Part shown: positions 3,352 to 37,793 of the stretch, in pieces
How the letters are laid out: every line of letters begins with the position of its first letter
Position numbering within the stretch: the stretch's first letter is position 1
NCBI GenBank assembly: GCA_035559535.1
Contig: DATMBG010000055.1
Span: 1-38,662 of the forward strand
Reading direction: 5' to 3'
Source of the DNA: Candidatus Limnocylindrales bacterium
GTDB taxonomy: Bacteria > Moduliflexota > Moduliflexia > Moduliflexales > JAUQPW01
DNA length: 38,662 bases
Notes under the pieces: generated by a model
The model's input: only the letters and a program-made list of their open reading frames with translations
Told to the model about the DNA's origin: nothing
Databases searched by the model: none
Translations under genes and position numbers: made by a program

Positions 3352-3627
3352 TGTAGCAGGAGGTCACATATTTGGCTGTGATACCTATAGATACGGGAAT
3401 ATCATTTCATTAAAAGTAGCCGGTACAACTATCGGCTTATCCAATTTTTCTATCTTCCAACCCTTTCGGGCTACCGCAGTAACTCCCCTGCCGATCCTTA
3501 GTAATTTTGTACCGGTTACTGATGGCAGATTGAAGGAGCAAACGGCCGGATTTGCTTTAGTATAAGAACAATTTTGTATAGCTGCTCTACTCTTTCTGCA
3601 ACATGTTCACCGAAGATGGGGTATTAT

Positions 3628-3663
3628 AAAAAAGGCCAGACACCTAAACGGCTCTGGCCTTTT
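3628..3663 (-). terminator. Intrinsic terminator downstream of HU (potentially bidirectional)
   Basis: AAAAAAGGCCAGA-N12-TCTGGCCTTTT hairpin with A/T tracts on both sides, about 40 nt after the HU stop. Confidence 0.8.
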
Positions 3664-3701
3664 GGTAGAGAGCTTATGGGTTCAGCTTAACAACGGACTC
3701 T

Positions 3702-3986
3702 CTACTTTTTAGCTTTGGTTGCTGCTTCTCTAAGTTTAGCTCCGGCAACAAATTTAGGAACCTGTTTGGCCGGAATTTTCAGCTCTTTACCTGTGCTGGG
3801 ATTTCTTCCTATTCTCGCTTTCCGTTTTGCCACAGAGAAAGTTCCAAATCCTACCAGGGTCACTTTTTCTCCCTTTTGTAGGGCACTCATGATGCCTTTA
3901 ATGGTTCCATCAATGGCTTTTGCAGCCTGGGCTTTGGTTAAATTTGCTGCTTCAGCGACTCTTGAAACAAGATCTCCTTTATTCAT
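3702..3986 (-). CDS. hup: DNA-binding protein HU
   Basis: MNKGDLV...VTLVGFGTF...ARIGRNPSTGKELKIPA...PKFVAG; strong SD AAGGAGGAG upstream. Confidence 0.97.
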   Translation of the reverse strand: MNKGDLVSRVAEAANLTKAQAAKAIDGTIKGIMSALQKGEKVTLVGFGTFSVAKRKARIGRNPSTGKELKIPAKQVPKFVAGAKLREAATKAKK

Positions 3987-5770: not shown

Positions 5771-5837
5771 AAGGGTAGGAGAAAGTAGGAGAGTGGAAGC
5801 GCATCCTTTCTTCCATCCCCCGGCTTTCTCCTTTTAT

Positions 5838-6890
5838 CTATCCCCGGGCCCAGTTAATGGCATCTAATAATTTTTGTGCACCGAATTTGATACAATCCGT
5901 TGTGGGTAATCCCGTTAGAGATTCGGTCTTCTCGATCTCTCGAAGGGCCTCTTCCTTTGTGAGATCAAAACAATTGAGGGAGATTCCGATGACTCTAGCC
6001 TTCTTAATAGGTAAAGAAAGGGATTCATAAAGTGCCACGATTTCCTTTAACGGGGGAATGATGATTTTCGAATCCCGGATATATTTACGGGTAGGCTGAT
6101 GACAAAGGATCATGTGGGAAGGCATTGTACCATGGAGGAGTGACAAGGTTACACCGGAGTATCCGGGGTGGAGAACAGAGCCCTGACCTTCTACCAGGAT
6201 TAAATCATGACCTGGAGCATTTTCTAAAATCAGTTGCTCGGCAGCACCTGACATAAAATCTCCAATTACCCGGTCAATGGCGATCCCAAAACCTGCTATC
6301 ATGATTCCTGTCTGCCCCGTGGGGATATAAATTGCTTTTCGTCCCTGCTGATTGGCAAGTTTTGCAATTTCAATGACGGTGGATTTTTTTCCTACCACAC
6401 AATCACTTCCCACCGTTAAGACGATTTGAGCGGGAACACCGGCGGCAAGGGCAGATCCTACCCGTAAATTATCGGGTGCTTTTCGCACATCCCAGATTTT
6501 TCTGTTATGGCGTTTAGCCACTTCTGCAAATTCCGGATCATCTTCAATCATGTAATGCAAGCCGCTGATGATGTCCATTCCGTGCTCTAAGGCAAACAAA
6601 ATATCCTTTCGCCACTCCGGAGGCAGCCCCCCGCCGCGAGGAGCTATGCCAAGTAATAAAGCCTCGGGTTTAAACACCAGGGCTTCTGAGATACTTTTAA
6701 CGAAAGGAATCCCTGCTCCTATGCCGATTACCTCTGCTACGTCCTTCTCCGTTCGGGTACTATCGACAACAGCCACAATGGGGTTTTTTCCATATCGAAT
6801 CATGCCTTCTGCAGTTTTAGAGTGTCCTCGTGCAAATTCTCCTTCTGCGTAAATTAAGATCCTGCTTTGAGGATTATATTTCATGTGCAT
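5838..6890 (-). CDS. DUF1611 family P-loop protein (DgcN/D-glutamate N-acetyltransferase-like)
   Basis: SKTAEGMIRYG, LGIAPRGGGLP, IISGLH, IWDVRK, VLTVGSDCVVGK, TGQTGIMI, DFMSGAAE and VEGQGSVLHPGYSGVTLSLLHG match the family as I recall it. Confidence 0.88.
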   Translation of the reverse strand: MHMKYNPQSRILIYAEGEFARGHSKTAEGMIRYGKNPIVAVVDSTRTEKDVAEVIGIGAGIPFVKSISEALVFKPEALLLGIAPRGGGLPPEWRKDILFALEHGMDIISGLHYMIEDDPEFAEVAKRHNRKIWDVRKAPDNLRVGSALAAGVPAQIVLTVGSDCVVGKKSTVIEIAKLANQQGRKAIYIPTGQTGIMIAGFGIAIDRVIGDFMSGAAEQLILENAPGHDLILVEGQGSVLHPGYSGVTLSLLHGTMPSHMILCHQPTRKYIRDSKIIIPPLKEIVALYESLSLPIKKARVIGISLNCFDLTKEEALREIEKTESLTGLPTTDCIKFGAQKLLDAINWARG

Positions 6891-7158
6891 AACCCGATCT
6901 CCCGGCCCCTTCCGATCTGGGCGTTTTCAAGGGTATCTTTTTAACTACCTACCCATCAAGCTAAGAAGGGGAAAAGCCTTATTTTCGGCCTGAACATCCC
7001 CTTTGTCCCCTTTCCGGGGCAGGTTTTTGGACCTACCCCCTCCAACTCCCCTTCCCTCGTCCAGCCTGTTTCCAGCCAAAAGGACCCAACCTGAACAGGG
7101 TACAGGGGATCTGGTAACTGCCCTTTCAAGCGATCCGGGGAAAGGGCCAGAGGAGAGG

Positions 7159-8277
7159 TTAAACTGATTTCATCTCAAGGATATTAATCATTTCTTTTAA
7201 CAACCGCTCGGTTGCATCTACTCTACCCAGAGCCTTACTCCGGATGTGCATATCGTTTAATTTTTCTGGATTTTTAATAAAAGTTATCAGATGCTCGGCC
7301 AGAACTTTTCCCGATAAATCCTGATTCAGGATGACTTCAGCAGCTCCGGCAGCAACCAGACTTCGGGCATTCAATTCTTGATGGTTGTAAACTGCGTAAG
7401 GGTAAGGAACCAGAATAGCCGGTTTCCCACAGGCCGTCAGCTCTGCGATGGTTGTAGCCCCAGCACGACAGATAACTAAATGGGTTCTGGCATACACTTG
7501 AGGGATAGAGTCAATATACTTTTGAAGCTCTCCTGAAAATCCTGCCAGGCGATAACCTTCCACAACCCGATCAAAATCGGCTTCTCCGGTTTGATGAATA
7601 AAATGAACAGAATTCTTCCAGGGAGCCAAATAAGGTAAAGCTTCCAAAACAGCCATATTGATTTTGTGGGCCCCCTGGCTTCCTCCGAATATGAGAATAT
7701 GGAGCTTTCCATCCTTTAAAGGAGGAAATGTTTCCCCGGCCTGAATAATTTCCCGACGGACCGGATTACCGGTCAAAACCGTCTTCCCTTTAGGGAAAAA
7801 CTTTTCGGTTTCAGGAAAACAGATGGCAATTTTATCTACCGATTTACTGAGCAGGCGATTGGTCAAACCCGGATATACATTGGGTTCCAGGATCATGGTG
7901 GGAATTCTCATAAAATAAGCCGCGTAAACCACCGGTCCAGAGGCATAACCTCCGGTTCCCAAGACACCCACCGGATTCAATTCCTTGAGCAACCCTATGG
8001 CCTGGAGAAAAGAGCGCGGCAATTTCAAGCAAGATTTCAGCGTTTGCAGAAATGTAGCCCCTTTGAGCCCTGCCACGTCAATGACCCTGAAGGGAAATCC
8101 CTCCCCAGGAACAATTTTGGCTTCAAGCCCCTTTTCGGTCCCTACAAAAATAACCTCCCATTCCCGAAAACGCCTGCGGATCTCCTGAGCTAAAGCAATT
8201 CCAGGATAAATATGTCCACCGGTCCCTCCCCCGGCGATGACAAAATTACTGGGCAGATAAATACACGTAGGTTCCAT
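7159..8277 (-). CDS. murG: Undecaprenyl-PP-MurNAc-pentapeptide GlcNAc transferase
   Basis: AGGGTGGHIYP, GTGGYASGP, TGNPVR, GGSQGA, HQTG, CRAGATT and HQELNA. Confidence 0.97.
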   Translation of the reverse strand: MEPTCIYLPSNFVIAGGGTGGHIYPGIALAQEIRRRFREWEVIFVGTEKGLEAKIVPGEGFPFRVIDVAGLKGATFLQTLKSCLKLPRSFLQAIGLLKELNPVGVLGTGGYASGPVVYAAYFMRIPTMILEPNVYPGLTNRLLSKSVDKIAICFPETEKFFPKGKTVLTGNPVRREIIQAGETFPPLKDGKLHILIFGGSQGAHKINMAVLEALPYLAPWKNSVHFIHQTGEADFDRVVEGYRLAGFSGELQKYIDSIPQVYARTHLVICRAGATTIAELTACGKPAILVPYPYAVYNHQELNARSLVAAGAAEVILNQDLSGKVLAEHLITFIKNPEKLNDMHIRSKALGRVDATERLLKEMINILEMKSV

Positions 8278-8283
8278 GGCTTT

Positions 8284-8312
8284 AAGGTATTAAACCTTCT
8301 GGAAAGGGTCAA
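8284..8312 (-). promoter_or_regulatory. Candidate sigma70 promoter for murG (would give a leaderless mRNA)
   Basis: Minus-strand TTGACC (8312-8307), 17 nt spacer, TACCTT (8289-8284). The ATG is 6 nt downstream with no adjacent SD. Confidence 0.45.
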
Positions 8313-8383
8313 GGGTTATTTTTTGAATTTAACGGAAAAAACGGGTTTCCTGAAAAACATAGATATCCTTTGGAAAGTTCTAG

Positions 8384-8692
8384 TATCCATTCGAAAACAA
8401 CGGTCTCGGCTGGTCACCAGACCAGGCTGCTTATCACATCAGCCGGTTGTGTGAGCTTTTTCAACTTCATCCTGAGCATCCTGGACTTTTCGAACGGTGG
8501 CTGCGACTAGCAAAGCAAGCTGCCATCCACGGTAAGCGTGCTTATGACGCACGGATTGCAGCATTCATGGCTCTCTATGGGATTGAGTTTGTGCTTACCC
8601 TGAATCCAAATGATTTTCACGGCTTCGGAGTAAACGTAGTGGAACCGGACACGCTCGTCGACGGTCCCTTAGACCCCCCCTGGTTGAAATAG
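8384..8692 (+). pseudogene. N-terminally truncated PIN/VapC-type toxin remnant inside the dcw cluster
   Basis: The frame opens after TAG 8381-8383 and reads YPFENNGLGWSPDQAA...GKRAYDARIAAFMALYGIEFVLTLNPNDF, the C-terminal two-thirds of a PIN domain. The first acidic motif (LDTN-type) and a proper start are missing. It is antisense to dcw and more GC-rich. Confidence 0.75.
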
Positions 8693-8794
8693 GTGATCTC
8701 TCACCGCCGACTCTTGTCCCAACTGCCTCGCGCAATGGACCGGCAGGGAACAGATTTCGACCTTCGGTTTGCGCTTTCGCAATTCACAAAAAGA

Positions 8795-9988
8795 TTACTT
8801 ATTTTCTGCATTCCTGGTTACTTTTTTGGAACTATAGCGGGAAATACTCAATAGAATTCCCACGCTGGTGGAGCAGACTAACAGGGAAGAACCTCCGTAG
8901 CTGATGAAGGGAAGAGGAAGCCCTTTGGTGGGGAGCAGTCCGGTGACGACCCCCAGGTTGATGAGAAACTGGGTTCCGATGAGTAAGGTAAGTCCAATCG
9001 CCATCAACATCCCGAAAAGATCCGGTGCTTGTAAGGCAATCCGAATTCCACGCCAGATTAAGATACCAAAAAGCCCCAGGATCAAAAAACTTCCCAGTAA
9101 ACCTAATTCTTCACCGATGGTTGCAAAAATAAAATCGGCATAAGGCTCTGGTAGATAAAACAATTTTTGATGCCCCTGTCCCAAACCCACTCCGCTGATC
9201 CCTCCGTTCCCCAGGGCAATTAAAGACTGAATGAGCTGGTATCCCGAATCCATAGAGTCCTTCCAGGGGTTCAAAAAGGCCAAAAGACGTTCCCGCTGAT
9301 AGGGAACTCGCCAAATAAGAAAGCCGAGTCCCGGCCCGGCTATCAGAAAAAGACCCAGAATATATCGCAGGGGAATCCCGGCCACAAAAAAAAGTCCTAG
9401 AATGATGATAACCAAATTGATACTGGTTCCTAAATCCGGTTGTTTGAAAATAAGGCCGAAGAAAAGACCTAAAATAATTAGTCCTGGAAGAAAAGTTTTA
9501 GAAAAACTTTTAATCTTCTCCTGTTTTTTGCTCAAGACATGGGAAAAATAAAGAATCAAGGCCAGCTTTGCAAACTCGGAGGGTTGAAAGAGGACCGGTC
9601 CAATACTTAACCAACGTCGTGCATTGTTGAGGACTACCCCTAAACTTGAGAACAGGGTAAGTACCAGTAACGTGAAAGCCAGAGTCAGAAAAGGGTAGGT
9701 TAACCAGCGCAGGTAAGGGTAGGGAATATAGCTAAAAAGAATCAGACTAAACAGGCTGGGTATCAGTACGATCAGATGCTTTTCTAAAAAGAGAAAAGAG
9801 TTTTTCCCTCCGAATTTACTACTCACATAGATGGCACTGGTGCTGTAAACCATAACAAGGCCCACTCCCATGAGTAAAAGGACGGTAATAAGTAAGATAT
9901 TATCCTTCGTTTGGGGTTCGTTGCCTTGTTGTCCGTTCTGGCTTGTTCGTCGTCCCTTATTCAGGGACCTTTGTTTGTTATCCCTCAT
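8795..9988 (-). CDS. ftsW: SEDS family peptidoglycan polymerase FtsW
   Basis: GLVMVYSTS, ARRW, FQPSEFAK, QPDLGT, GYQLIQS, YLPEPYADFIF, GEELG and LPTKGLPLPFISYGGSS. Confidence 0.96.
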   Translation of the reverse strand: MRDNKQRSLNKGRRTSQNGQQGNEPQTKDNILLITVLLLMGVGLVMVYSTSAIYVSSKFGGKNSFLFLEKHLIVLIPSLFSLILFSYIPYPYLRWLTYPFLTLAFTLLVLTLFSSLGVVLNNARRWLSIGPVLFQPSEFAKLALILYFSHVLSKKQEKIKSFSKTFLPGLIILGLFFGLIFKQPDLGTSINLVIIILGLFFVAGIPLRYILGLFLIAGPGLGFLIWRVPYQRERLLAFLNPWKDSMDSGYQLIQSLIALGNGGISGVGLGQGHQKLFYLPEPYADFIFATIGEELGLLGSFLILGLFGILIWRGIRIALQAPDLFGMLMAIGLTLLIGTQFLINLGVVTGLLPTKGLPLPFISYGGSSLLVCSTSVGILLSISRYSSKKVTRNAENK

Positions 9989-10058: not shown

Positions 10059-11147
10059 TTAACGTAGTTTCAGGGTGGCTAAACTGATTAGAGCCAGGAT
10101 AATCGCGATAATCCAAAACCGAACGATAACTTTAGGTTCTGGCCAGCCTAGCAGCTCGAAATGATGGTGAAGGGGGGCCATACGAAAGACTCTTTTTTTG
10201 GTCAATTTAAACGAGGCTACCTGGATAATAACCGATAAAGCTTCTACGACGAATAAACCGCAGATGATAACCAACAGCAGCTCATGTTTGGTCAGAACCG
10301 CAACAGTTCCCAAAGCCCCTCCCAGACCTAAGGAGCCGACATCTCCCATGAAGATCTGGGCCGGGTAGGTATTAAACCATAGAAATCCTAATCCGGCCCC
10401 GAAGATAGCCCCACAAAAAACCGTAAGCTCACCGGCTCCCCGAACATGCCAGATATTTAGATATTCGGCGATGATGGCATTTCCTGAGAGATAGGACAAA
10501 GCGGCATAGGTCAAAACGGCGATAATGGTAGGCCCTATAGCCAGTCCGTCCAATCCATCGGTTAAATTAACTGCATTGGAAGTCCCCACGATTACCAGGA
10601 CGACCAAAGCGATATAGAAAATACCCAAATCGGGTTGAATTTCTTTAAAGAAAGGAATACTCAGTGTGGTAGAAAAAAAGCCATCGGCCTTAACATAGAG
10701 GTAGATCCCAATAGCCAGGGCTACTGTTACCTGAGCCCCCAATTTATATCTGGCCTTGAGACCCAAAGACCGTTTTTTGATGACCTTCAGGTAGTCATCT
10801 ACAAAACCGATAGCCCCATAGCTGAGGGTAGAAATTAAAGCGATCCAGATATGGGGATTAGTTAAATCCGCCCAGAGCAGGGTAGGTATGATAACAGCAA
10901 TAAGGATCAAAATTCCTCCCATAGTGGGAGTCCCTGCCTTTTTGTAGTGGGAAGTGGGTCCTTCCTCTCGAATATATTGGCCAATTTGATATTCCCTTAA
11001 TTTTTGGATAATCCAGGACCCCAAAGCTAAACTGATAATGAGGGCCGTCAGGGTCACACAAAAGGATCTAAAGGTGATATATCTAAAAATCCTTAGAAAG
11101 GAAAGAGGTTCATAGACATGAAGAGGGTAAAGGAGATGGTAAAGCAT
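10059..11147 (-). CDS. mraY: Phospho-N-acetylmuramoyl-pentapeptide transferase
   Basis: [37 protein letters not shown] and MAPLHHHFE. Confidence 0.98.
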
Positions 11148-11172
11148 GTTACGTATTCGCCGAATTCCGGGT

Positions 11173-12741
11173 TCAGTGGGTCGTTATCAATCCTTTAACG
11201 ATCTTCTCCATTTTCATTCCCCGAGAACCTTTGATCAGTACGGTATCACCTTCCTTTAGTTCGTGCTGGAGTTTTTCTATAATTTGTTCGTGGGAGTCTG
11301 CCAGGAATATGCGGTTCGGCTCCATACCTTTTTCCCGGGCTCCCAAAGCAATAAACTGAGAATAGGGACCCAAAACCCAAAGCAGGTCGATCCCCAGGTC
11401 TGCAACGGCTTCTCCAACTCCCTTGTGGGCCATTTCACTCCACCTTCCCAATTCCAGCATATCTCCGAGGACCGCAATCTTTCGCCCGACCCCTGGGATC
11501 TCTTTTAAGGTTTTCAAGGCCATTTTCATAGAGCTGGGGTTGGCGTTATAGGCATCATTTAAAATGAGGATCCCTTTGTGAGAAATAGTTTCCATGCGCA
11601 TGGGAGCCGATTGAAAATTTTCTAACCCCCGCTGAATTTCCGACAGATTTAGCCCAAGGGCGTGGGTTGCTGCGGCTGCAGCCAGCGCATTGTAAATATT
11701 ATGATAGCCCATGACAGGAAGGGTGATGGAGCATTTTCCTCCATTAATCCGAAGGTTAAAGGTATAGGTTTTATTTTCGGAAAGAATTATGTCCGTGGCC
11801 GACACATTCGCTTCCCAATTAATTCCAAAGGTAATCAACTTACATCGGACTTCTTGAACCATAGAAGGGAAAAAAGTATCATCCGCATTAAGTACGGCTA
11901 CTCCATTCAGGGGTAAAGATTGAATGAGCTCCACCTTTGCTTTCATGATGGCTTCAATAGAATCAAAAAATTCTAAATGAGCTCCACTGATATTGGTAAT
12001 AATTCCTACATCGGGTTCTGCTATTTCGGCCAGGCGTTTAATCTCTCCGGCTTTACTCATTCCCATCTCGAGAACCCCTGCTCCATGGGCATCTGTCAGG
12101 GATAGGAGGGATAAAGGAAGCCCGATTAAGTTATTCCAATTTCCTTGAGATTTTAAAGTTATATAACGCTGACTCAGAATGGAGGCAATCATCTCTTTAA
12201 CCGTTGTTTTTCCATTACTACCGGTAACTCCGATGAGGGGTATGTGGCGGTATTGCATGCGATAAAAATGAGCCAGATTTTGAAGCGCTCGGAGGGTATC
12301 TTCAACTTGAATGACAAAGAAATCCGGGTTTAAAGCCTCCCTTTGCAAACGATGGAAAGAGGTTTCGTCGCTGAGAATAACTCCCTTTGCTCCTTTTTGA
12401 AGAGCTTCTAAAATAAAATCGTGGCCGTTGAATCGTTCTCCAATGAGGGCTATAAAGACTTGACCGGGTTTTAGAGTACGACTATCGATGGAAAAGCCAT
12501 CTGGTTCCCCGGTTTTTAACTCTTGAAGAAGTCTGCCCTGAGTAGCCGTTAAGATGTTGTCGATCAGCCTAGCCATACCTGTGGAGACACGGGGTTTTTG
12601 AGACACGGAGACGCGGGGACGCAGGGATACAGGGTCCATCTTTATATCCCCGTATTCTCGGGTCTCCGCATTTCTGTATCCTCGTGCTCTCGTATCTCTA
12701 TATCTCTGTAGTTCTTTATTCTGTCGTTTTTTTATTTTCAT
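11173..12741 (-). CDS. murF: UDP-MurNAc-tripeptide--D-Ala-D-Ala ligase (the conserved protein likely starts at ATG 12576)
   Basis: [55 protein letters not shown] and KGSRGM. The first 55 codons derive from 8-mer repeats. Confidence 0.95.
12580..12712. repeat. 8-mer short tandem repeat arrays (GAGACACG/GGGACGCA-like) arranged as an inverted pair
   Basis: GGAGACACGGGG...GAGACACGGAGACGCGGGGACGCAGGGATACAGGG is followed by complementary degenerate units (CCCCGTAT TCTCGGGT CTCCGCAT TTCTGTAT CCTCGTGC TCTCGTAT). Related units occur at 12802-12863 and 18745-18810. Confidence 0.75.
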
Positions 12742-29443: not shown

Positions 29444-29782
29444 TTATCTCTTTCCCACGGATCTTTTACTTGCTTTGATAGGATCTACAGGGCCAGAAGG
29501 TTGTTGAATTAAAGCTTTTTCTTTTTCCTTCTGTTCCTCAACCGCTTGAGCTACTTTTTTATCAAATAATCTGATATAATCTTGTCTAAGAGATTCAACG
29601 GCAGCTTTTTTACCCGTTGTAGGGGATTTCTCCGAAATAACTTTCGGATTGCCGTTCCCATTAGAGATAATCAAACTAAATTCTTTATATAAAGTTCCAT
29701 TTTCCCGAACATCTCGTTCGGTTAGCTCAAATCGGGTGTTTCCTACCTCTTTTTTTCTTAAAATCACGGTTTCCGTATCCAT
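29444..29782 (-). CDS. Hypothetical protein
   Basis: 112-aa ORF with strong SD AGGAGG and an upstream TTGACA-17-TAATTT promoter. Confidence 0.7.
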   Translation of the reverse strand: MDTETVILRKKEVGNTRFELTERDVRENGTLYKEFSLIISNGNGNPKVISEKSPTTGKKAAVESLRQDYIRLFDKKVAQAVEEQKEKEKALIQQPSGPVDPIKASKRSVGKR

Positions 29783-29919
29783 TTAAAGGCCTCCTATGAA
29801 GGTTTGGGCTGGTTTTACTTATAAAAGTTCATTCAGAGCAGCCCCTCCGATTGAACTGTTGCTTATCTTTACAAGCAACGGGTGTGTTTCTAAATTATCC
29901 GGAAATTTTCCAGTATTCA

Positions 29920-29948
29920 AAATTAATGCCTGTTTCTTAACCTGTCAA
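29920..29948 (-). promoter_or_regulatory. Candidate sigma70 promoter for 29444-29782
   Basis: Minus-strand TTGACA (29948-29943), 17 nt, TAATTT (29925-29920). Confidence 0.6.
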
Positions 29949-29997
29949 ATTTTTTTTAACCTTTGTATCCGTATCCATTTAGTTAGGTAGAAAAAGA

Positions 29998-30080
29998 AAC
30001 GCCCCCCATCCCCCCTCCAGGAGGGACTGACATAGGGTTGCTGCTGCTGAATCCCCCCTGGAGGGGGGATGGGGGGCGTT
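29998..30080. repeat. GC-rich long inverted repeat (REP-like)
   Basis: AACGCCCCCCATCCCCCCTCCAGG (29998-30021) is perfectly complementary to 30057-30080. Related CCCC..CCCT..AGGG elements occur near 7030-7158, 28425-28465, 29272-29308 and 37887-37928. Confidence 0.8.
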
Positions 30081-30319
30081 CAGACAGAAAAAGGGACATC
30101 TACTAAATTGTTACAGTTACTAATCTTTTGTTTTGACCCTTCCTATGATCCTACCACTTCAATCAAATTCTGGGAAGAACCATTTGATTGGATGTAGTTC
30201 TGGAAATTGTAGAGAGGACGGGAGAGGAAAATGATGAAAAGGGTGAAATTAACCTTGACAATTTTAAAAGAAAGCGGTTGACTATAAGTCAGGATATGAA
30301 ATTATAGGGGGTCTGTCCG

Positions 30320-30682
30320 TTGGTCCAAAGCGTACAAAGAAAAGAATTATTCTTCCTTCTTTTACTGTTATACCTGGGATTTCTAGGTTATGGGAATCTT
30401 TGCCTGTTTGATCATCCTCTAGACTTTTCCCACCCTGGGGAAATCTCGGATTTTCCTTCCTCCCATCGGCACCATGAATCCAAGGATTCAAGAAGTCTTG
30501 CCCACTCCTGTTTGGTAGTACAATTTCTCCTTTTAACCTCGATAGTTTCCGGCCTATTCCTTTTTATTTTTGCCCTACTTATTTCTCCCTGTAATTGGAT
30601 ACGAAATGAAAAAGTTTATCGAGCCCCTATTCTCTCCTACGCTAATCGATCCCCCCCTGGCTTCTTCAAACCTGCCTTTTAA
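30320..30682 (+). CDS. Small membrane/exported protein with His/Cys motifs and C-terminal RSPP (DUF2946/CutF/CruR-like candidate arrest peptide)
   Basis: TTG start with AGGGGG SD; hydrophobic N-terminus, GYGNLCLFDH, HRHH, HSC and RSPP at 30647-30658. Paralogous to 32166-32555. Confidence 0.7.
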   Translation: MVQSVQRKELFFLLLLLYLGFLGYGNLCLFDHPLDFSHPGEISDFPSSHRHHESKDSRSLAHSCLVVQFLLLTSIVSGLFLFIFALLISPCNWIRNEKVYRAPILSYANRSPPGFFKPAF

Positions 30683-30942
30683 ATATTCTTTACTTTACTT
30701 TGGCGGTTTTTGTTAAAGCCTTAAAATTTAACACGAAGATCAGAGAAATCAGAGGGAAGTAAGGGATTACTTCTTTTTAGAAAGACTTTTGTGTTCTTCT
30801 TGTTAAAGATTAAGGCTGTTTCTACAAAGGTAAAGAAGGCTAATTCTTGTGTAAAGACTCTTTCTGTCTACTTTCCTCAGGTTAGGGAACTAGGTTATAC
30901 AGGGGGCTATAATGCCCATTCTTCAAGGAGGTGTGTTACTCT

Positions 30943-31491
30943 ATGAAAGGGGTTTATCTTTCCAATCTACCTTTAAGTGCCAAGGTATTCTGTACTTTGT
31001 TCCTTTTGGGAATCGGTTTAGGATCTTTGGCTGCCTTTACCCAGGCAGCCACTGCTGTTGGCCTTTCTTATGAAGATGTAAAGAGTAGTTTGGCTCCGGA
31101 AATGCCCATGACGCATATGGGTCACGGACAGATGAGCATGGAAAAGGAGATCGATATCAGTCAAATCCGTAACACTGCCAAAGTCTGGATTCGGACTCCC
31201 CTCTTGATTCAGACAAGCCATACCCATCTCTTCGGTCAAACCCTTATTGCTGGACTGCTCGGACTCATCTTCCTTTTTTCTTCTATAGAGGAGTGGAAGA
31301 AAGCCTTGATTCTGGCCCTTCCCTTTATCGGAACCATCTTAGATATTGGCGGTATGTGGCTGACCCGGTTTGTCTGGCAACCCTTTGCCGTGCTGGTTTT
31401 GATGGGTGGAAGTATCTTTGCCCTGGGTTATGTAATGATTGCTGTCATTTCCCTTTATGAACTCTGGCTAAAAAGGGGAGCCCCTATATAA
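30943..31491 (+). CDS. Four-TM inner membrane protein with Met/His-rich loop and HxHLFG motif
   Basis: ATG 30943 follows SD AAGGAGG (the ORF track starts at GTG 30931). EMPMTHMGHGQMSME loop, TSHTHLFG and four hydrophobic segments. Confidence 0.8.
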   Translation: MKGVYLSNLPLSAKVFCTLFLLGIGLGSLAAFTQAATAVGLSYEDVKSSLAPEMPMTHMGHGQMSMEKEIDISQIRNTAKVWIRTPLLIQTSHTHLFGQTLIAGLLGLIFLFSSIEEWKKALILALPFIGTILDIGGMWLTRFVWQPFAVLVLMGGSIFALGYVMIAVISLYELWLKRGAPI

Positions 31492-31530
31492 ACCGTAGGT
31501 AAGTCGTGACAGGAAAGGAGGTCTTTAGGT

Positions 31531-32139
31531 ATGAAGAAAAAATATAAACAGGTTATGTTTCTAACCGGGTGTATGTTATGCTTTTCTTTTATAGTCCAGA
31601 CAGGAATCACCCTCGCTCATATTACCCCTCCGGTGGTTCTCATCTCTGATCGGGATGCCGTGCTGAGTATGACCGACGGGGCTAAAAAGTTCTTTGTTCG
31701 GGAAGTCAGGTTAAAACCTGAAGAACGGGAAGCCTTACGAAACCAACTGGGATGGCAGGCTGATGAAGAGTTTTATCGATTTTACCTGGGTCGGGATGAG
31801 CAGGGAAAAATGGTCGCCGCAGTGGCCTTTATGACCGAGTTTACCATCCATGGCCCGGTCCGGGTAGCCGTTGGATTAGGCCCCGATGGGAAAGTCAAGG
31901 GTGCAAAGGTCGTGGAAATGACCGAAGAAACCTATCCCTGGCTCAAGCCACTTCTGGATCAGGATTTCACTCAAAACTATATCGGATTGGATAGCCATGG
32001 AAACTTCACGGTTGCCGGGGCCGGTCAGGCCGGTGGACAGGAAAATATGACCCTCTTTTATGGTCAAATTGTTGCCAACCTTATCCAACGTGCTGCGGCT
32101 CTCTTCGATATTGCGGTCCTGAAGCGAGGGGATATCTGA
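31531..32139 (+). CDS. Exported FMN-binding-domain-like protein lacking the flavinylation motif
   Basis: SD AAGGAGG; signal peptide ending ITLA/HITPP. HGPVRVAVGLGPDGKVKGAKVV...FTQNYIG resembles the FMN_bind fold, but no [S/T]GA[S/T] is present. Confidence 0.65.
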   Translation: MKKKYKQVMFLTGCMLCFSFIVQTGITLAHITPPVVLISDRDAVLSMTDGAKKFFVREVRLKPEEREALRNQLGWQADEEFYRFYLGRDEQGKMVAAVAFMTEFTIHGPVRVAVGLGPDGKVKGAKVVEMTEETYPWLKPLLDQDFTQNYIGLDSHGNFTVAGAGQAGGQENMTLFYGQIVANLIQRAAALFDIAVLKRGDI

Positions 32140-32165
32140 TGGGAAGCTTTAAATAAAACCCTTTT

Positions 32166-32555
32166 TTGAATGAAATCCTTTCTTTTATGCAGAAGAAGTT
32201 GTTTTCCTGGGTAAAAATAGTCCTTCTGGCCTATTTAGTTTTCCTGGGCTATGGGACCTTCTGTTTAGTGGACCATGAATTAGACTTTAAACCGGGAATC
32301 TCTCTGACTTCTTCCAGGTTAGAACCTTCCCAACCTTCTCCGTCCAATTCGAGGGATCAACATCCAGAGTCTTCCCATCATATCTGTGTCTTTTTACTTA
32401 ACCTTATTTCAGGAAGCCTGACCTCTCAAGTAAATCTTTTAAGTAAAATCCAGGAATTCCCTCTGGATACTTTTATTCGAATCGAAAGCCTTCATCTATT
32501 TTTTGATCTCTCCTTTAAAAGTCGAGCTCCTCCTTTACTCCATAGCTATCGATAA
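32166..32555 (+). CDS. Small membrane/exported protein with His/Cys motifs and C-terminal RAPP (second paralog)
   Basis: Start at TTG 32166 or ATG 32187; LLAYLVFLGYGTFCLVDH, HHIC and RAPP at 32523-32534. Confidence 0.72.
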   Translation: MNEILSFMQKKLFSWVKIVLLAYLVFLGYGTFCLVDHELDFKPGISLTSSRLEPSQPSPSNSRDQHPESSHHICVFLLNLISGSLTSQVNLLSKIQEFPLDTFIRIESLHLFFDLSFKSRAPPLLHSYR

Positions 32556-32743
32556 GCCACAAGGTTGAGATTTCATGTGAGCTTGTTCATGGTTTTAAAC
32601 CTGTATTCCAGATTCCCTTTTTTACGTTTGAGATTGGGATAGAGGTTGAGGGTACTTGATCTGTGCTGTGCCTGTACCGATGGGTTCTTAAAACTCGATG
32701 TGTGCCTATTTCCAGGTTTAGCGGGTTATGACAACAACTAACC

Positions 32744-34297
32744 TTGCTGGCCGCTTACAGTAGAGAGGAGGAAATTATGTGGACTCAGTCGGATTTAATA
32801 CCATCTGATCACTCCATGGATGGGAGTAATAAAAGAGTCTCAAAATCTCAAGGTCAAAGCTTTTTTCATCAAAAGGGTCCCTATGACAGGGATGAGTTCC
32901 TTGTAAAATCGAAGGGAAGAAAAAAGAAAAACCTTTTATCCCCTTATCTTCTCTATATTCCGGGGCTACTCCTTTACATTATGACCTGGTCTACCTGTGG
33001 TCTGGCTCAGGAGTCTAAGGAACGGGAGATCTCGCTATCTCCTACCTCACCCGGTCGAGAGACCCCCTTAGATCTTGCAGGACTTCCTAAAGAACCTGTG
33101 GGTATAAAGATCAATGGTTTCATCGTGGGATCCTTGAGTTATAATTCCCGTATTCAGATAGTTCCGGAATTTGCCGGTAGTGCTCCGGCTCTGGCCAATC
33201 CTGGAGCGACTAATTTTAGTTTCGACAAATTCGGCCTGGCCCTTTCCAGGACTTTTGCTTCCTGGCTTTCAGCCAGTGGAGCTATCGAGGTAGAAAGTCA
33301 CAGGAACCGACATGCCCATGGCTTCAACCCGGAGTTCGGCTGTCCGGAAGGTGGAACCAGTCCTTGTATTGAGAGATTCGGATCCGAGGAGCCCGAAATT
33401 GAAGTTGGGCTGGATAAATTTAATATTACCGGTATAGTCCCGGTTGGGAATGGGCTTTCCCTCTCCTTGGGAAGATTTGACGTTCCGTTCGGTATCGAAC
33501 GGCATGATGAACCCCTGTTGCTCACGGCTACCAACTCCGAGGTCTTCCGTTTCGGTCGCCCGCAAAAAGTAACGGGATTCTGGACGGCTTACCAAGTAAA
33601 TCCTAAAGTAAACTTCGATGTCTTCCTCGTGAACCGCTGGGAGTCTGAGACGACGGAGGATGACTTTAACGATAACAATAAAGGAAAAACCGTCGGAGGC
33701 CGCATTGGTTTCACCCCCTTGCCGACCACAGGCCTTTTAAACTTTGGCATCGGAGGTATCTATGGTCCCGAACAAGAAAATAACGATTCGAGTAAACGAT
33801 GGGTGATAGACCTTGACGCTACCTGGAATCCTATCTCCAAATTCCTTTTGACGGGGGAATTTGTCTTCGGAAGCGAATCAGATTTTGAAGCCCGACAAGT
33901 CGGCCAGCCTATCTTTCAGGCCCCAATACAGGGAGATGTAAGTTGGTTTGGATTTTATTTGCTGGGCCACTATGATGCCCGACCCTGGTTGGGTTTTTCC
34001 CTTCGTTATGGCTACTTTGATGATCAGGATGGGGCAAGAACCGGAATCCAGCAAAAGCTCCAATCCCTGACTTTTGCTCCCGTCATCCATCTCTCCCGAT
34101 TGATTCCAGATCTTCGTCCGACCGGTGCTACGTTTGCACGAACTCGTCATCCCATTGATTGGGTCGACTTGAAGTTTGAATACCGTTACAACCACTCCAA
34201 TCGACCTGCCTTCTCCGATGAAGAGCCAGGAGTAGATATTCTAGAAGCCGATAAAACAAGTCATCAATTTCAGTTCCAGGCGGTTGTCAACTTCTAA
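32744..34297 (+). CDS. Outer membrane beta-barrel porin (putative beta-barrel porin-2/phosphate-porin-like) with His/Cys-rich loop; likely start ATG 32777 or later
   Basis: SD GAGGAGG before 32777; hydrophobic signal ending CGLA. LGRFDVPFGIE, DNNKGKTVGGRIG, LKFEYRY, amphipathic beta strands and a terminal Phe (QAVVNF). Confidence 0.82.
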   Translation: MLAAYSREEEIMWTQSDLIPSDHSMDGSNKRVSKSQGQSFFHQKGPYDRDEFLVKSKGRKKKNLLSPYLLYIPGLLLYIMTWSTCGLAQESKEREISLSPTSPGRETPLDLAGLPKEPVGIKINGFIVGSLSYNSRIQIVPEFAGSAPALANPGATNFSFDKFGLALSRTFASWLSASGAIEVESHRNRHAHGFNPEFGCPEGGTSPCIERFGSEEPEIEVGLDKFNITGIVPVGNGLSLSLGRFDVPFGIERHDEPLLLTATNSEVFRFGRPQKVTGFWTAYQVNPKVNFDVFLVNRWESETTEDDFNDNNKGKTVGGRIGFTPLPTTGLLNFGIGGIYGPEQENNDSSKRWVIDLDATWNPISKFLLTGEFVFGSESDFEARQVGQPIFQAPIQGDVSWFGFYLLGHYDARPWLGFSLRYGYFDDQDGARTGIQQKLQSLTFAPVIHLSRLIPDLRPTGATFARTRHPIDWVDLKFEYRYNHSNRPAFSDEEPGVDILEADKTSHQFQFQAVVNF

Positions 34298-34625
34298 GAG
34301 GATGAAATCCTGGGGAAATTAAAGGGCTTATTCCATGATGCCAAGACAAAAATCGGTTTTCTCCTTCTCAGTTTGGATTTTCTATCTGCTTTTTCTCGAT
34401 TATAGAACTGTTTGTCTATTCGTCTGTCTATTTGATCATGGAATAGGCCTGTTTCCTGAATAGATAGGGTAAATTATTTTTTGTATTTTCTCCCTGAGGG
34501 GATAAAATTAAATTTATCAAGTTGCTGTTAAAGCAATAGCTGATGAAAGTCCTTATGGAAAGAAGAGGTGGAGAATCGGGAATAATCAGGTTTACCCGAT
34601 TCGACTCCCTCTTTATGAGGAGCAA

Positions 34626-35042
34626 ATGAAACTAAAAAGATTGTTCCCTATAGCCGGGATCCTATTTTTCGTACTGTCCTGTTGGGTTTCTACAATGGGA
34701 TATGCCGCCGATGAGGTTCCCAGAATAACAAAAGAAAAGCTTAAAGAAATGTTCGGTAACCCCGATTTGATTATCCTGGATGTCAGAACTGGTTCAAGTT
34801 GGGAAAGCAGCAGGGAAAAAATTAAAGGGGCGATCCGAGAAGACCCCAAAAGTGTAAACTCTTGGGCCGACAAATATCCTAAAGATAAAATTTTGGTTCT
34901 TTATTGTTCTTGACCTGATGAAGCTACCAGTGCCCGGGTGGCACGGGAACTCCTCCGTAAGGGATTTACCAGGGTTTATGCCTTGAAAGGTGGATGGAAT
35001 GAATGGGTAGAGGCTAAATTCCCAACAGAACCCAAAGATTAG
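34626..35042 (+). CDS. Exported rhodanese-related selenoprotein (CxU motif; TGA 34911-34913 read as Sec), 138 aa
   Basis: After LVLYCS-TGA the frame continues PDEATSARVARELLRKGFTRVYALKGGWNEWVEAKFPTEPKD-TAG, the missing half of the rhodanese fold. A SECIS-like hairpin lies directly downstream of the TGA. Confidence 0.85.
34927..34946 (+). promoter_or_regulatory. Candidate bacterial SECIS element
   Basis: CC(A)GTGCC-CGGGT-GGCAC-GG hairpin; the G-containing apical loop starts 21 nt after the UGA. Confidence 0.65.
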
Positions 35043-35251
35043 GTATCTGATCCCCTAAAGATCAGGGATAGTTTTAGATACCTTAAAAGAATGAAAAAAA
35101 TAACTATTTATCCTTTACAAATGGAATTAGATTTGAGAATATAATTTGAAGTGTTAAAGGGTTGTAATCCAACATGGAAGCACAGCCTACTAGATGCCGG
35201 GGGTAAATTTCTAACTGGAAGGAAAGGTATCTAGGTGGTTTAGGAAGAGGT

Positions 35252-36568
35252 ATGGAAAGCAGAGTTACACGAAGAGAATTTTTAAAGAAAGTGGGGCGAG
35301 GTGGTTTTGGACTTTACCTGAGTACATTGCCCGTAAGTTTAATATCCTGTACCCAGGCTGAGAAAAAAACCTTTTCATCATTCCAGGAGGTTTATAGAAG
35401 TTCATCTAAAAACCTGTCTAAAACCGATTTAGAGTTACTTCGATATCCTTACCTTCAATGCCCTACCACTTCTTCGATGAAAATTGCCTGGAAAACAAAA
35501 AGTTCCTGTAAAGGTGAGATCCGATACGGACTGACACAAGATTTAGAACAGATTGCAAACGGTCTTTCACCTACAGAGTGCCATCTCGTGACGCTTCTAG
35601 ATCTTCAACCGGATACCCAGTACTATTATCAGATTTTTGGCGATGGAGCCCCCCTGACAGAAATGGAAACTTTCAAAACAGCCAAACCGTGTAGTTCTAA
35701 AAGTTTCTCCTTTATCGCATTTGGAGATTCCGGTAGTGGTAATACGGATCAATATCGGGTCGCAGAGGTCATGAAAAGTTTAAATTTTGACCTGGCTATT
35801 CTGACGGGAGATATTGTCTATCCCAATGGGGATACTGCCTACTATGAGTCTAACTACTTCCGACCCTATCGAGACCTGATAAAAAAGGTTCCCTTCTTTC
35901 CTTCACTGGGAAACCATGATCTGGATTCCAAAAACGGACAAGGTTACTTAGAGGCATTTGATGTTCCCGCTAATAATCCTCTGAATTCCAAACGATATTA
36001 TACCTTTAGATATGCCCATGCTCTGTTTATAGCCTTAGATAGTAATGAAGGGCTTTTATATAAACCGGATCAAATTCAAGGAAGTCCTCAATATAAGTGG
36101 CTGGTTCATGAACTTCAGAAGGCCGAGAACGACCCGGAGGTCAACTGGCGATTTGTCTTTTTTCACCATCCCCCTTATAGTGGAGGATACCACGGTCAGG
36201 GAGGTCAGAAAGAACGGCTGGCCCAGCTCAGGAAAACCCTGGTTCCAGTATTGGAGAAATACCAGGTGGATATGGTGTTTAATGGCCACGATCACCACTA
36301 TGAGAGATCTTATCCCATAAGGGACGGCAGTATAGAAAGTGAACCTGTTTCCGATACCCAGGGGATTGTCTATATTGTAACCGGTGGGGGGGGACGGGGA
36401 AATAATTTCTGGCGAAGCCGTCTAAAGAAAGGGCCCTGGTGTGCCTATATTGAAGATACTTTCCATGTAACCTATGTCGAGATTGATGGAAGCCTCCTCA
36501 CCCTTAAAGCCATTAATGATCGGGGAGAAGTTATAGATAAGGCTACGATTCAGAAATCCAGGATTTAA
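35252..36568 (+). CDS. Purple acid phosphatase-like metallophosphoesterase, Tat-exported lipoprotein with FN3-like N-domain
   Basis: TRREFLK Tat motif, LISC lipobox; GDSG, GDIVY, GNHD, HHPPY and GHDHHYER motifs. Confidence 0.9.
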   Translation: MESRVTRREFLKKVGRGGFGLYLSTLPVSLISCTQAEKKTFSSFQEVYRSSSKNLSKTDLELLRYPYLQCPTTSSMKIAWKTKSSCKGEIRYGLTQDLEQIANGLSPTECHLVTLLDLQPDTQYYYQIFGDGAPLTEMETFKTAKPCSSKSFSFIAFGDSGSGNTDQYRVAEVMKSLNFDLAILTGDIVYPNGDTAYYESNYFRPYRDLIKKVPFFPSLGNHDLDSKNGQGYLEAFDVPANNPLNSKRYYTFRYAHALFIALDSNEGLLYKPDQIQGSPQYKWLVHELQKAENDPEVNWRFVFFHHPPYSGGYHGQGGQKERLAQLRKTLVPVLEKYQVDMVFNGHDHHYERSYPIRDGSIESEPVSDTQGIVYIVTGGGGRGNNFWRSRLKKGPWCAYIEDTFHVTYVEIDGSLLTLKAINDRGEVIDKATIQKSRI

Positions 36569-36628: not shown

Positions 36629-37387
36629 ATGGCCGACAACAACCACCGACATTTGACTAAAAGAGAACGTCGGGAATTGAGACGGGAGGAAAAAAAGCAA
36701 GCCAGATTACATGAACAAAAACAAGAACAACGGAAACGCCTACGCAGGCGGATTACCCTCTGGTTTTTTGTGTTGCTCGGCGTTGGCGGTGGGATCTTTG
36801 GAATGATCCAGTTGGCCAAAAATCCCTCTTCCTACAAAGCCTCTCCACCAACCTCCCTAGACTCAACTGCAGGTTGGACCAAAGGCAATAAAGATGCAAA
36901 GGTTACTCTGATCGAATACAGCGACTTTCAATGTCCTGCTTGCCGTAATAGCTATGCCTGGGTTAAAAGATTAACCCTGGAATTTAACGATAAAATGCAA
37001 TTTGTCTATCGCCATTTTCCCCTCAAGCAAATTCATCCCAACGCAGAATTGGCTGCACGCGCTGCCGAAGCCGCCGGCAGGCAGGGTAAGTTTTGGGAAA
37101 TGCATGACATGCTTTTTGAAAATCAGAGTAGTTGGGCAAATCGGTCCGATGCCGGGGAGATTTTTATAAAATATGCTCAATCCCTTAATCTCAGTGTGGA
37201 ACAGTTTAAAAATGATCTCAACTCCAGGGAAGTGCGAGAAAAGGTAGAAAACGATTATCAGCACAGTATTCAATCCGGTATAGACGCCACGCCAACTTTT
37301 TTTCTTAACGGAAAGAAAATTCAAAACCCCAGAAGCTATGAAGAGTTTAAAAACCTCATCCAGCAGGCCATTCAAAGTAATTCCTAA
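36629..37387 (+). CDS. Membrane-anchored DsbA-family thiol-disulfide oxidoreductase
   Basis: TM anchor, EYSDFQCPAC, YRHFPL, QGKFWEMHD and GIDATPTFF (cis-Pro). Confidence 0.93.
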   Translation: MADNNHRHLTKRERRELRREEKKQARLHEQKQEQRKRLRRRITLWFFVLLGVGGGIFGMIQLAKNPSSYKASPPTSLDSTAGWTKGNKDAKVTLIEYSDFQCPACRNSYAWVKRLTLEFNDKMQFVYRHFPLKQIHPNAELAARAAEAAGRQGKFWEMHDMLFENQSSWANRSDAGEIFIKYAQSLNLSVEQFKNDLNSREVREKVENDYQHSIQSGIDATPTFFLNGKKIQNPRSYEEFKNLIQQAIQSNS

Positions 37388-37793
37388 CTCCATTGTTCTT
37401 GCTTTTCTCATCGTCAGTCTGGTAGGTTTTTTAGATGCAACCTACCTGACTGCCAAACATTACCTGGGGGAAGTTCCCACCTGCTCCCTCCTAGAAGGTT
37501 GCGAAAAGGTCCTCACAAGCCCCTATGCGACCCTGGGAAGGGTCCCTGTAGCCCTGCCCGGAGCCTTGTATTATCTGGTTATTTTTCTCTCCCTGGTTGC
37601 TTACGTGGATACGCCACGAAGGAGTATCCTCCGTTTTACCGCCTATTTGACTTTCTTTGGCTTCCTGACTTCGCTGGGGTTTATCTATCTTCAACTTTTT
37701 GTTCTTAAGGCTGTTTGCCTCTACTGTATGGCTTCGGCAGCAAGTTCCATCGTTTTATTCGGTCTGGGTATTTATGTGTTGAAATGTCGGTAA
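37338..37793 (+). CDS. Vitamin K epoxide reductase (VKOR) family protein
   Basis: CSLLEGCEKVLTSPYA loop cysteines, CLYC and four TMs; overlaps the DsbA gene by 50 nt. Confidence 0.92.
   Translation: MKSLKTSSSRPFKVIPNSIVLAFLIVSLVGFLDATYLTAKHYLGEVPTCSLLEGCEKVLTSPYATLGRVPVALPGALYYLVIFLSLVAYVDTPRRSILRFTAYLTFFGFLTSLGFIYLQLFVLKAVCLYCMASAASSIVLFGLGIYVLKCR

Follow-up and report, generated by a model that had tools for sequence, protein, structure and literature searches.

Tandem Leader Open Reading Frames Ending in R-x-P-P in Front of Envelope Genes of a Candidatus Limnocylindrales Bacterium: Candidates for Metal-Sensing Arrest Peptides

Introduction

SecM of Escherichia coli (RAGP) is an exported leader with control over the next gene, and its C-terminal Arg-x-x-Pro arrest core lies close to the stop codon; SecM monitors secretion, not metal, and its arrest sequence is longer than that of the leaders described below. 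To our knowledge, CruR and CutF are the only studied nascent exported peptides that report periplasmic metal to their own ribosome. The present work deals with two small open reading frames (ORFs), leader 1 and leader 2, found in a 38,662-nucleotide (nt) stretch of DNA of Candidatus Limnocylindrales bacterium (contig DATMBG010000055.1, positions 1–38,662 of the forward strand; hereafter the window), which is one contig of a 5.6-Mb assembly (GCA_035559535.1). It is probable, if well short of certain, that the two are metal-sensing arrest leaders of the CruR/CutF type, most likely responding to copper, and that they belong to a new sequence family. The principle of metal-sensing arrest leaders has already been published; the family itself is new and unannotated.

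According to the description of CruR in PMC9426467, this Bordetella pertussis protein (Bp2923, DUF2946/PF11162) is encoded upstream of the TonB-dependent transporter BfrG and consists of an export signal, a CXXC motif, 45 residues and RAPP, which stands three residues ahead of the stop; a long spacer comes next. The same source states that changes of RA or PP abolish downstream expression, that a change of CXXC abolishes the copper response, that the output is Rho-dependent termination, and that Sco-type and AhpC_TSA-type genes are among the neighbours (PMC9426467). CutF of Rhodobacter capsulatus is encoded upstream of the multicopper oxidase CutO and is described as showing copper-induced stalling at a C-terminal PPP: copper is bound in the periplasm, the ribosome stalls, and a stem over the cutO ribosome-binding site melts (bioRxiv 10.1101/2025.02.05.636593). 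For ApdA/ApdP, Fujiwara et al. describe RSPP as "partially permissive" for arrest and as under-represented in proteomes, and RAPP/RGPP small ORFs are reported upstream of metal genes, as are RAPP leaders upstream of DsbA/thioredoxin genes (PMC12992588).

The Leader Family

Leaders 1 and 2 (Table 1) have a stretch in common, LLYLGFLGYGNLCLFDHPLDF in the former and LAYLVFLGYGTFCLVDHELDF in the latter, followed in both by a His-rich linker. They are 32% identical over 125 columns (BLASTP E-value, 3 × 10−11), and in the 5.6-Mb genome each full leader matches itself and the other, and nothing else. The preliminary description of this stretch, made from the sequence alone, had taken them for paralogues sharing these features together with H-x-C and a C-terminal R-[SA]-P-P, and had placed them about 220–260 nt upstream of the following genes; the paralogy was borne out, and the gaps measure 260 nt and 223 nt. 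Leader 2 begins 47 nt past the stop of a gene for an RnfG-like protein and is internal to the gene row rather than first in it. Its ATG at 32187 is favoured as the start, because the equivalent ATG is used by the orthologues in a genome of the same genus and in the database protein P0004.

A word-indexed search with the leaders returned two relatives. The family is tiny: a profile built from seven sequences detected 7 proteins at E ≤ 0.001 among 1.84 billion representatives. When the source genome and 40 relatives were searched, real matches were found in two of the 41, the source genome and the same-genus genome, and eight others gave E-values of 0.08–0.6. A match from the genome scan (L022) was rejected as a chance similarity inside a mutS-like gene. 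In the same-genus genome, a contig syntenic with the window (L019) carries four full leaders. Three leaders, about 45% identical to leader 1 (ORF1), are present on a metagenome contig (L023; contig L024 has the same sequence).

The family alignment comprises 11 sequences that are 30–87% identical to ORF1. Thirteen residues are invariant in all of them (ORF1 numbering): Y24, G25, C28, L29, D31, H32, H62, C64, L70, E97, R110, P112 and P113. Helix 1 follows the pattern Y-L-x-F-L-x-Y-G-x-x-C-L-x-D-H. The stretch from H-x-C to R-x-P-P contains no insertion or deletion in any member, so that 45 residues always lie between Cys and Arg, and 47 between His and Arg. The motif itself reads RAPP in five members and RSPP in six. 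Thus, both conservation checks that had been proposed with the preliminary description, one of R-x-P-P and the other of the Cys/His positions, came out positive in 11/11 homologues. The third, on the genes downstream, gave a similar picture: L023, despite leaders only about 45% identical to ORF1, keeps a leader, the membrane pair, a second leader, the porin and a third leader in this sequence.

The tail after the two prolines is short, free to vary, and tolerates a frameshift. It counts 6–7 residues in nine of the members, one residue in leader 4 of the same-genus genome, and 24 residues in leader 1 of that genome, in which a run of seven C has become nine C and the frame changes directly after PP. 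The same insertion of two C was found in a DNA contig from run X5, which comes from a population that is possibly, not certainly, that of the same-genus genome. In the window, the run of seven C falls in the Ser-Pro-Pro codons of leader 1 (30650–30656), and slippage could be favoured by such a homopolymer at the proposed stall site.

Hydropathy analysis revealed an N-terminal hydrophobic segment within the first ~45 residues of all 11 members, preceded by a positive net charge in 10 of them. A second hydrophobic stretch, located at or just after H-x-C, was detected in 9/11 members at a hydropathy threshold of 1.5. The shortest of these stretches is 23 residues, and in most members it is long enough to span the membrane; it is below the threshold in leader 2 of the source and same-genus genomes. 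The segment ends ~15–25 residues before the proposed stall site. The possibility that C28 is a lipoprotein cysteine was considered and rejected, since the residues preceding it (G-N-L, G-T-F, G-T-V, G-T-L) do not fit a lipobox as the rule is commonly stated.

Beyond the two genes that leaders 1 and 2 precede in the window, the same-genus genome offers two further leader contexts. Leader 3 of that genome is followed by a cytochrome c gene (1 × 10−9) with a cupredoxin-like domain and then by a gene for a 519-aa membrane protein. The cupredoxin-like part scores 23.7 bits against Cupredoxin_1, below the 27-bit cut-off, and its match to the C-terminal region of NosZ (7.3 × 10−7) is far below the cut-off. 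Leader 4 is followed by a gene for an SCO1/SenC copper chaperone (Pfam, 5.9 × 10−33). A spacer of 223–820 nt follows every full leader.

Translation and Avoidance of the Motif

The codons of R-x-P-P vary synonymously in the nine leaders for which DNA is available (CGA, CGC or CGG for Arg; TCC or TCT for Ser; GCT for Ala; CCC, CCT or CCG for Pro), and it is therefore the protein that is conserved here, not an RNA word. Compared with its same-genus orthologue, leader 1 has a ratio of non-synonymous to synonymous substitution rates (dN/dS) of 0.19, based on 22 synonymous and 16 non-synonymous differences; eight neighbouring genes gave values of 0.07–0.17 in the same comparison. In addition, four paralogue types at 30–45% identity share the same 13 residues. 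From the synonymous codons, the dN/dS values and the kept residues, we conclude that the leader frames are in all likelihood read by ribosomes and that selection appears to act on the peptide.

Motif counts in the source genome, which covered 1.49 million residues in 3480 ORFs of 200 aa or longer, revealed that RAPP occurs once against 15.5 occurrences expected, RSPP not at all (12.8 expected) and RGPP once (16.3 expected), which amounts to 2 observed versus 44.6 expected (Poisson probability about 4 × 10−17). The control motifs are present nearer to expectation: AAPP 14 times (19.3 expected), ASPP 13 (15.9), KSPP 10 (12.8) and RTPP 11 (11.8). RSPP is thus avoided in this genome as strongly as RAPP, and the counts reproduce the proteome-wide avoidance that is described by Fujiwara et al. 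(PMC12992588). The near-absence of the three motifs lends indirect support to arrest. Within 12 residues of a stop, R[AGS]PP was found in 43 ORFs of 30–199 aa, most of which lie inside longer frames. Only four non-embedded ORFs of at least 100 aa end in this way, namely leaders 1 and 2 and two paralogues on another contig of the genome, C31.

The C31 pair (L043) is unrelated to the window family. Its members, at 4428–4742 (+) and 9070–9381 (−), are small membrane ORFs of 103/104 aa that are 40% identical to each other (E-value, 2 × 10−14), end in ..SRAPP plus 5–7 residues, and have the motif L-H-P-Y-x-H..L-E-x-L-G-L-D-x-N..C-x-W in common. The plus-strand leader precedes an ABC-3 (ZnuB-type) permease gene (5274–6137), while the minus-strand leader precedes genes for a 408-aa outer-membrane-like protein (7675–8901) and ZnuA (6625–7584) on the same strand. 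A Fur-family gene (10835–11290) lies beside them, and the same-genus genome has the two leaders as well. The pair supports the idea that in this lineage RAPP leaders serve several metal systems rather than a single one.

Comparison with Known Arrest Leaders

The layout of the window family is co-linear with that of the CruR-type (DUF2946) proteins: a membrane helix with a Cys just outside is followed after about 30 residues by a second ligand motif, and after another 45 by R-x-P-P with a short tail. The likeness to CruR extends to the small ORF whose N-terminus carries an export or membrane signal, the thiol motif 45 residues before a C-terminal R-A-P-P, the few residues left to the stop, the long spacer, and the position at the head of outer-membrane uptake and copper-chaperone genes. 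The two differ in that CruR carries CXXC, whereas the window family has H-x-C together with C-x2-D-H, in that six of the 11 members here have RSPP and most have a full second hydrophobic segment, in that the outer-membrane gene is a BBP2 porin here and a TonB-dependent transporter with CruR, and in that the window family has up to four leaders per locus. CutF is likewise a co-translationally exported leader; according to the proposal made for it, copper bound in the periplasm keeps the ribosome at a C-terminal proline motif and so unmasks the ribosome-binding site of the next gene. However, CutF uses CXXXC and PPP and is dependent on EF-P, whereas the window family has R[AS]PP and an unmasking stem for leader 2 at most.

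ApdA, ApdP and seven examples from Streptomyces lividans, the metal-related SLIV_16130 and SLIV_18480 among them, are described as small secreted or membrane proteins bearing a RAPP-like motif at the C-terminus, encoded upstream of same-strand genes (PMC12992588). As in the window family, the metal-related S. lividans examples have conserved Cys/His residues, and as in the source genome, the motif of ApdA/ApdP is kept out of the remaining proteome (PMC12992588). The surveys behind these examples, as they are presented there, were keyed to RAPP and RGPP only (PMC12992588), and natural RSPP members like those of the window family would therefore not have been collected. No sequence relation between ApdA/ApdP and the window family is claimed.

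For a comparison with DUF2946 proper, 18 proteins from 14 of 81 alphaproteobacterial genomes were aligned. In 14/18 of them, 47–49 residues separate the first Cys from the Arg, and the tails are of 1–9 residues; the second Cys is lacking in 4/18 (C-P-F or C-C variants). A forced global alignment puts H-x-C of the window family on CxxC, and this placement carries no statistical weight. Since no sequence relation is detectable, the family is not filed under DUF2946, even though it probably works like DUF2946. The earlier idea, that of an arrest leader resembling CruR/CutF but with other ligands, appears largely right as to the kind of element, and mistaken or at least unsupported as to a relation to DUF2946.

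Proposed Mechanism

We infer that the leaders stall and bind metal, and likewise which metal this is, the sign of the regulation and its output step (ribosome-binding-site unmasking or Rho termination). The leader would be translated, and its N-terminal helix would insert in the inner membrane with the N-terminus inside. Cys-x2-Asp-His at the outer end of this helix, and H-x-C emerging 45 residues ahead of the peptidyl-transferase centre, would then face the periplasm. The ribosome would pause once Arg-(Ala/Ser)-Pro occupies the P site and the second Pro the A site. The length of the pause would depend on a metal, likely copper, held by the exposed Cys/His residues, as its binding would change the insertion or export pull on the nascent chain. 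The paused or released ribosome would then determine how the genes beyond the long spacer are expressed. Leader 1 would control the Aq_1264_TM protein and its RnfG-like partner, and leader 2 the porin; in the same-genus genome, leader 3 would control the cytochrome c/cupredoxin-like gene, and leader 4 the SCO1 chaperone. With Pro112 in the P site, H62 would lie 50 residues back, a distance that, by the reasoning applied to CruR/CutF, would roughly match exit tunnel and translocon taken together, and C28/D31/H32 could there meet the emerging H62/C64 to form a four-ligand site.

If the leaders do sense a metal, copper is likely to be the ligand, because of SCO1, the cupredoxin-like domain and the Met/His loop of the protein encoded behind leader 1. 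The preliminary description had thought of possibly a different metal; the context, with its SCO1/SenC and cupredoxin-like genes and this loop, speaks for copper instead. The pointer to copper is at the same time a first lead to the function of Aq_1264_TM and of the RnfG-like protein, two envelope proteins that are conserved very widely and carry no annotation.

If the family is confirmed, the nascent-chain sensor design would be broader than DUF2946, with the same 45-residue geometry, a His/Cys sensor and natural RSPP, and surveys keyed to RAPP/RGPP or to PF11162 would miss part of such leaders. A more far-reaching version combines an independent family of nascent-chain metal sensors, a two-part ligand site, a modular leader array and an "arrest-leader code" of the lineage; that all of these hold jointly is doubtful. 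The two-part site would mean that metal staples Cys-x2-Asp-His of the inserted helix to H-x-C and so sets the pull on a natural RSPP/RAPP stall. In the modular array, up to four leaders per locus would provide one checkpoint per layer (inner-membrane pair, porin, cupredoxin protein, SCO1). The window leaders together with the zinc-type C31 pair would suggest a general metal-specific code in the lineage.

Evidence Weighing Against an Arrest Leader

Several results weigh against the interpretation of the leaders as CruR/CutF-type arrest peptides. PF11162 (DUF2946) gave no match at E ≤ 1 for seven family members and none at E ≤ 10 in a six-frame search of the genome. The alignment of the 11-sequence family against the 18 DUF2946 proteins with hhalign reached a probability of 1.6% over 12 columns around RxPP only, and the canonical CXXC is absent from all 11 members, which have the invariant H-x-C instead. 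Six members carry RSPP, the form that is weaker than RAPP in the cited work. Leader 2 has a dN/dS of 0.52 relative to its same-genus orthologue (10.5 synonymous and 18.5 non-synonymous differences), and inspection of the sequence revealed no visible Shine-Dalgarno in front of it. The comparison set is small and closely related, with DNA from three genomes or contigs. Finally, helix 1 is conserved unusually strongly, and this, like the complete second hydrophobic segment of most members, would likewise agree with a stable membrane protein that has two helices and its own function.

A conserved RNA switch was likewise not found in the folds and models run. In only two of eight leader/gene pairs does the downstream Shine-Dalgarno find its best partner in the stall codons; the ranks of the stall window are 286/578, 11/547, 708/971, 1/553, 57/781, 1/1117, 250/610 and 83/693. 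When the stall zone was blocked in a partition-function model, the Shine-Dalgarno clearly opened in one of six pairs (from 0.05 to 0.21); this set of six is without the same-genus leaders 3 and 4 and the plus-strand leader of C31. In the consensus fold of three leader-2 spacers, the RAPP codons GCUCCUCC pair with GGAGGAG of the porin gene, with a z-score of −1.14 for the whole fold. Hence there is a hint, weakly supported by these models, of an unmasking stem between RAPP codons and Shine-Dalgarno for leader 2 alone. No conserved structure could be established in the leader-1 spacer, the consensus fold of which rests on a poor alignment with L023 and on a same-genus spacer with a ~380-nt insertion. 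The spacers are not C-rich (C/G, 0.60–1.07), and a Rho loading site is thus not evident. The 3′ halves of the leaders are C-rich because of their Leu/Phe/Ser/Pro codons.

Scans for other regulatory signals gave little. The promoter scan returned 8 sites versus 7.3 ± 2.9 in shuffles, and the terminator scan 11 versus 7.6 ± 3.3, that is, no signal in either case. A weak hairpin followed by a U-run at ~30756–30785 is partly kept in the same-genus genome. No Rfam family reached its gathering score in 29700–35300, and the sub-threshold "miRNA" matches come from a G+C-rich inverted repeat at 29998–30080. This repeat, with 29-nt arms that are 97% complementary and 25 nt apart, lies ~240 nt upstream of leader 1.

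Alternative Explanations

The explanation that survives best besides an arrest leader is that the leaders are stable two-helix inner-membrane proteins, such as metal-binding accessory subunits or chaperones, in which R-x-P-P would be a cytoplasmic interaction motif. We regard it as unlikely. It would account for a helix 1 that is conserved far beyond the needs of a generic signal, for a second hydrophobic segment in 9/11 members that is mostly of membrane-spanning length, for the dN/dS of leader 1, which is like that of a normal protein, and for the fact that an RNA switch could not be shown. It is harder to reconcile with the proteome, where 2 occurrences of the motif against 44.6 expected are difficult to understand if the motif is harmless to translate. 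Moreover, the motif always stands 1–7 residues from the stop, one frameshifted tail excepted, and the tail behind it is unconserved and tolerates that frameshift. A stable protein would also not be expected to share the 45-residue gap of the experimentally studied CruR, as this is given in PMC9426467, or to be followed in every copy by a spacer of 223–820 nt.

Less likely still are arrest peptides that sense not metal but membrane insertion or secretion (Sec/YidC force, as with SecM, MifM and ApdA/ApdP) or else the redox state of periplasmic thiols. Insertion of the second hydrophobic segment could pull the nascent chain, given the distance between its end and the proposed stall site, genes for DsbA-like and VKOR proteins are found downstream, at window positions 36629–37793, and RAPP leaders upstream of DsbA/thioredoxin genes are on record (PMC12992588). 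However, none of the genes that follow the leaders directly codes for a Sec, YidC or Dsb component; they encode a Met/His-loop membrane protein, a porin, a cupredoxin-like protein and SCO1, and the invariant Cys/His/Asp residues form two clusters typical of a metal site.

That the leaders are chance frames or decaying fragments in spacer DNA that are not translated, as might be supposed from leader 2 without a clear Shine-Dalgarno, the fragmentary third copy in the window and the near absence of the family from databases, is highly improbable in view of 13 invariant residues at 30–45% identity in four paralogue types from three genomes or contigs, of the synonymous codon use at the motif, and of dN/dS values below 1.

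Genes Behind the Leaders

The features of the locus are listed in Table 1. The gene behind leader 1 encodes a four-helix membrane protein of the family Aq_1264_TM (PF27139), for which 932 relatives were found; a sample of 24 sequences is about 73–93% identical to the window protein. In this sample, H93 and H95 are invariant, and M54, M56 and H61 of the conserved loop are nearly so. Among 151 genomes of the relatives sample, the protein is present in two, both of the same genus.

The next gene encodes an exported or anchored protein of 202 aa. Its AlphaFold model (pLDDT 89) resembles RnfG and NqrC (Foldseek E-values, 1.3 × 10−4 to 8 × 10−4; TM about 0.5). Inspection by eye for the flavin-attachment motif did not reveal it in the protein. 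Directly after the N-terminal helix it has A-H-I-T-P-P, of which A29, H30, T32, P33 and P34 are invariant and I31 is kept in at least 90% of the homologues; those sampled are 56–95% identical to the window protein. One may speculate that signal cleavage would leave an N-terminal His copper site. The metagenome bins with homologues of Aq_1264_TM and the RnfG-like protein are labelled by their sources as several different lineages, and the adjacency of their locus tags, seen in one record or more, points to a fixed gene pair.

Table 1. Positions of the leaders, their motifs and spacers, and the genes that follow them in the window.
Feature	Position	Strand	Details
Shine-Dalgarno of leader 1	30306..30311	+	AGGGGG, 8 nt before TTG; read from the sequence, also kept in the same-genus genome
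Leader 1 (ORF1)	30320..30682	+	TTG start, 120 aa, ends in ..YANRSPPGFFKPAF and stop
Layout of leader 1			N-terminal membrane helix (predicted), residues 9–31; His-rich loop; second hydrophobic segment, residues 58–95; RSPP and 7-residue tail
Leader 1, C28-L-F-D31-H32	30401..30415	+	Cys, Asp and His invariant in 11/11; outer end of helix 1
Leader 1, H62-S-C64 (H-x-C)	30503..30511	+	invariant; Cys-to-Arg gap 45 residues
Leader 1, R110-S-P-P113	30647..30658	+	proposed stall site; CGA TCC CCC CCT
Spacer, leader 1 to membrane-protein gene	30683..30942	+	260 nt; Shine-Dalgarno AAGGAGG at 30924–30930
Four-helix membrane protein, Aq_1264_TM (PF27139)	30943..31491	+	182 aa; feature score 0.97; conserved PEMPMTHMGHGQMS loop, invariant TSHTH
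Exported or anchored protein, RnfG/NqrC-like (FMN_bind) fold	31531..32139	+	202 aa; weak FMN_bind/RnfG matches
Leader 2 (ORF2)	32187..32555	+	122 aa from ATG 32187 (129 aa if from TTG 32166), ends in ..FKSRAPPLLHSYR and stop
Leader 2, H65-I-C67	32379–32387	+	
Leader 2, RAPP codons	32523–32534	+	CGA GCT CCT CCT
Spacer, leader 2 to porin gene	32556..32778	+	223 nt (188 nt with porin start TTG 32744); Shine-Dalgarno GAGGAGG at ~32765–32771
Outer-membrane beta-barrel porin, Pfam BBP2 (1.6 × 10−24)	32779..34297	+	ATG 32779 behind GAGGAGG; frame open from TTG 32744
Truncated third leader	34335..34463	+	42 aa, ends in ..LLFLDYRTVCLFVCLFDHGIGLFPE and stop; N-terminal helix and C-L-F-D-H kept, rest gone

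Comparison of the window with L019 revealed two missing blocks of 3.5 and 3.4 kb, at window positions 34420/34471 and 35052. The first block (L019 7305–10829) holds most of leader 3, the cytochrome c/cupredoxin-like gene and the gene for the 519-aa membrane protein, and the truncated third leader of the window is the remnant of this 3.5-kb deletion. The second block (L019 11988–15432) holds leader 4, SCO1/SenC and a gene for a 264-aa protein.

On the same-genus contig, the start codon of the Aq_1264_TM gene is precisely where a G+C-rich element of ~380 nt (L019 ~3455–3835) is located. A copy of the start region stands on either side of the element, which separates the gene from its Shine-Dalgarno. 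Similar short units, with frames reading ..SALTPGPSPTLWERGVG.., occur in tandem after leader 3 of L023 (11800–12166).

Further downstream in the window, a rhodanese-like gene (34626–35042, +) contains an in-frame TGA at 34911–34913, just after ..LVLYCS. When the gene is read through this codon, the Pfam Rhodanese match extends from residues 36–95 (7.8 × 10−6) to residues 36–129 (4.2 × 10−15). The TGA is also present in the same-genus genome, and a tRNA-Sec (anticodon tca) is found in the genome, which makes this gene a candidate for a selenocysteine rhodanese.

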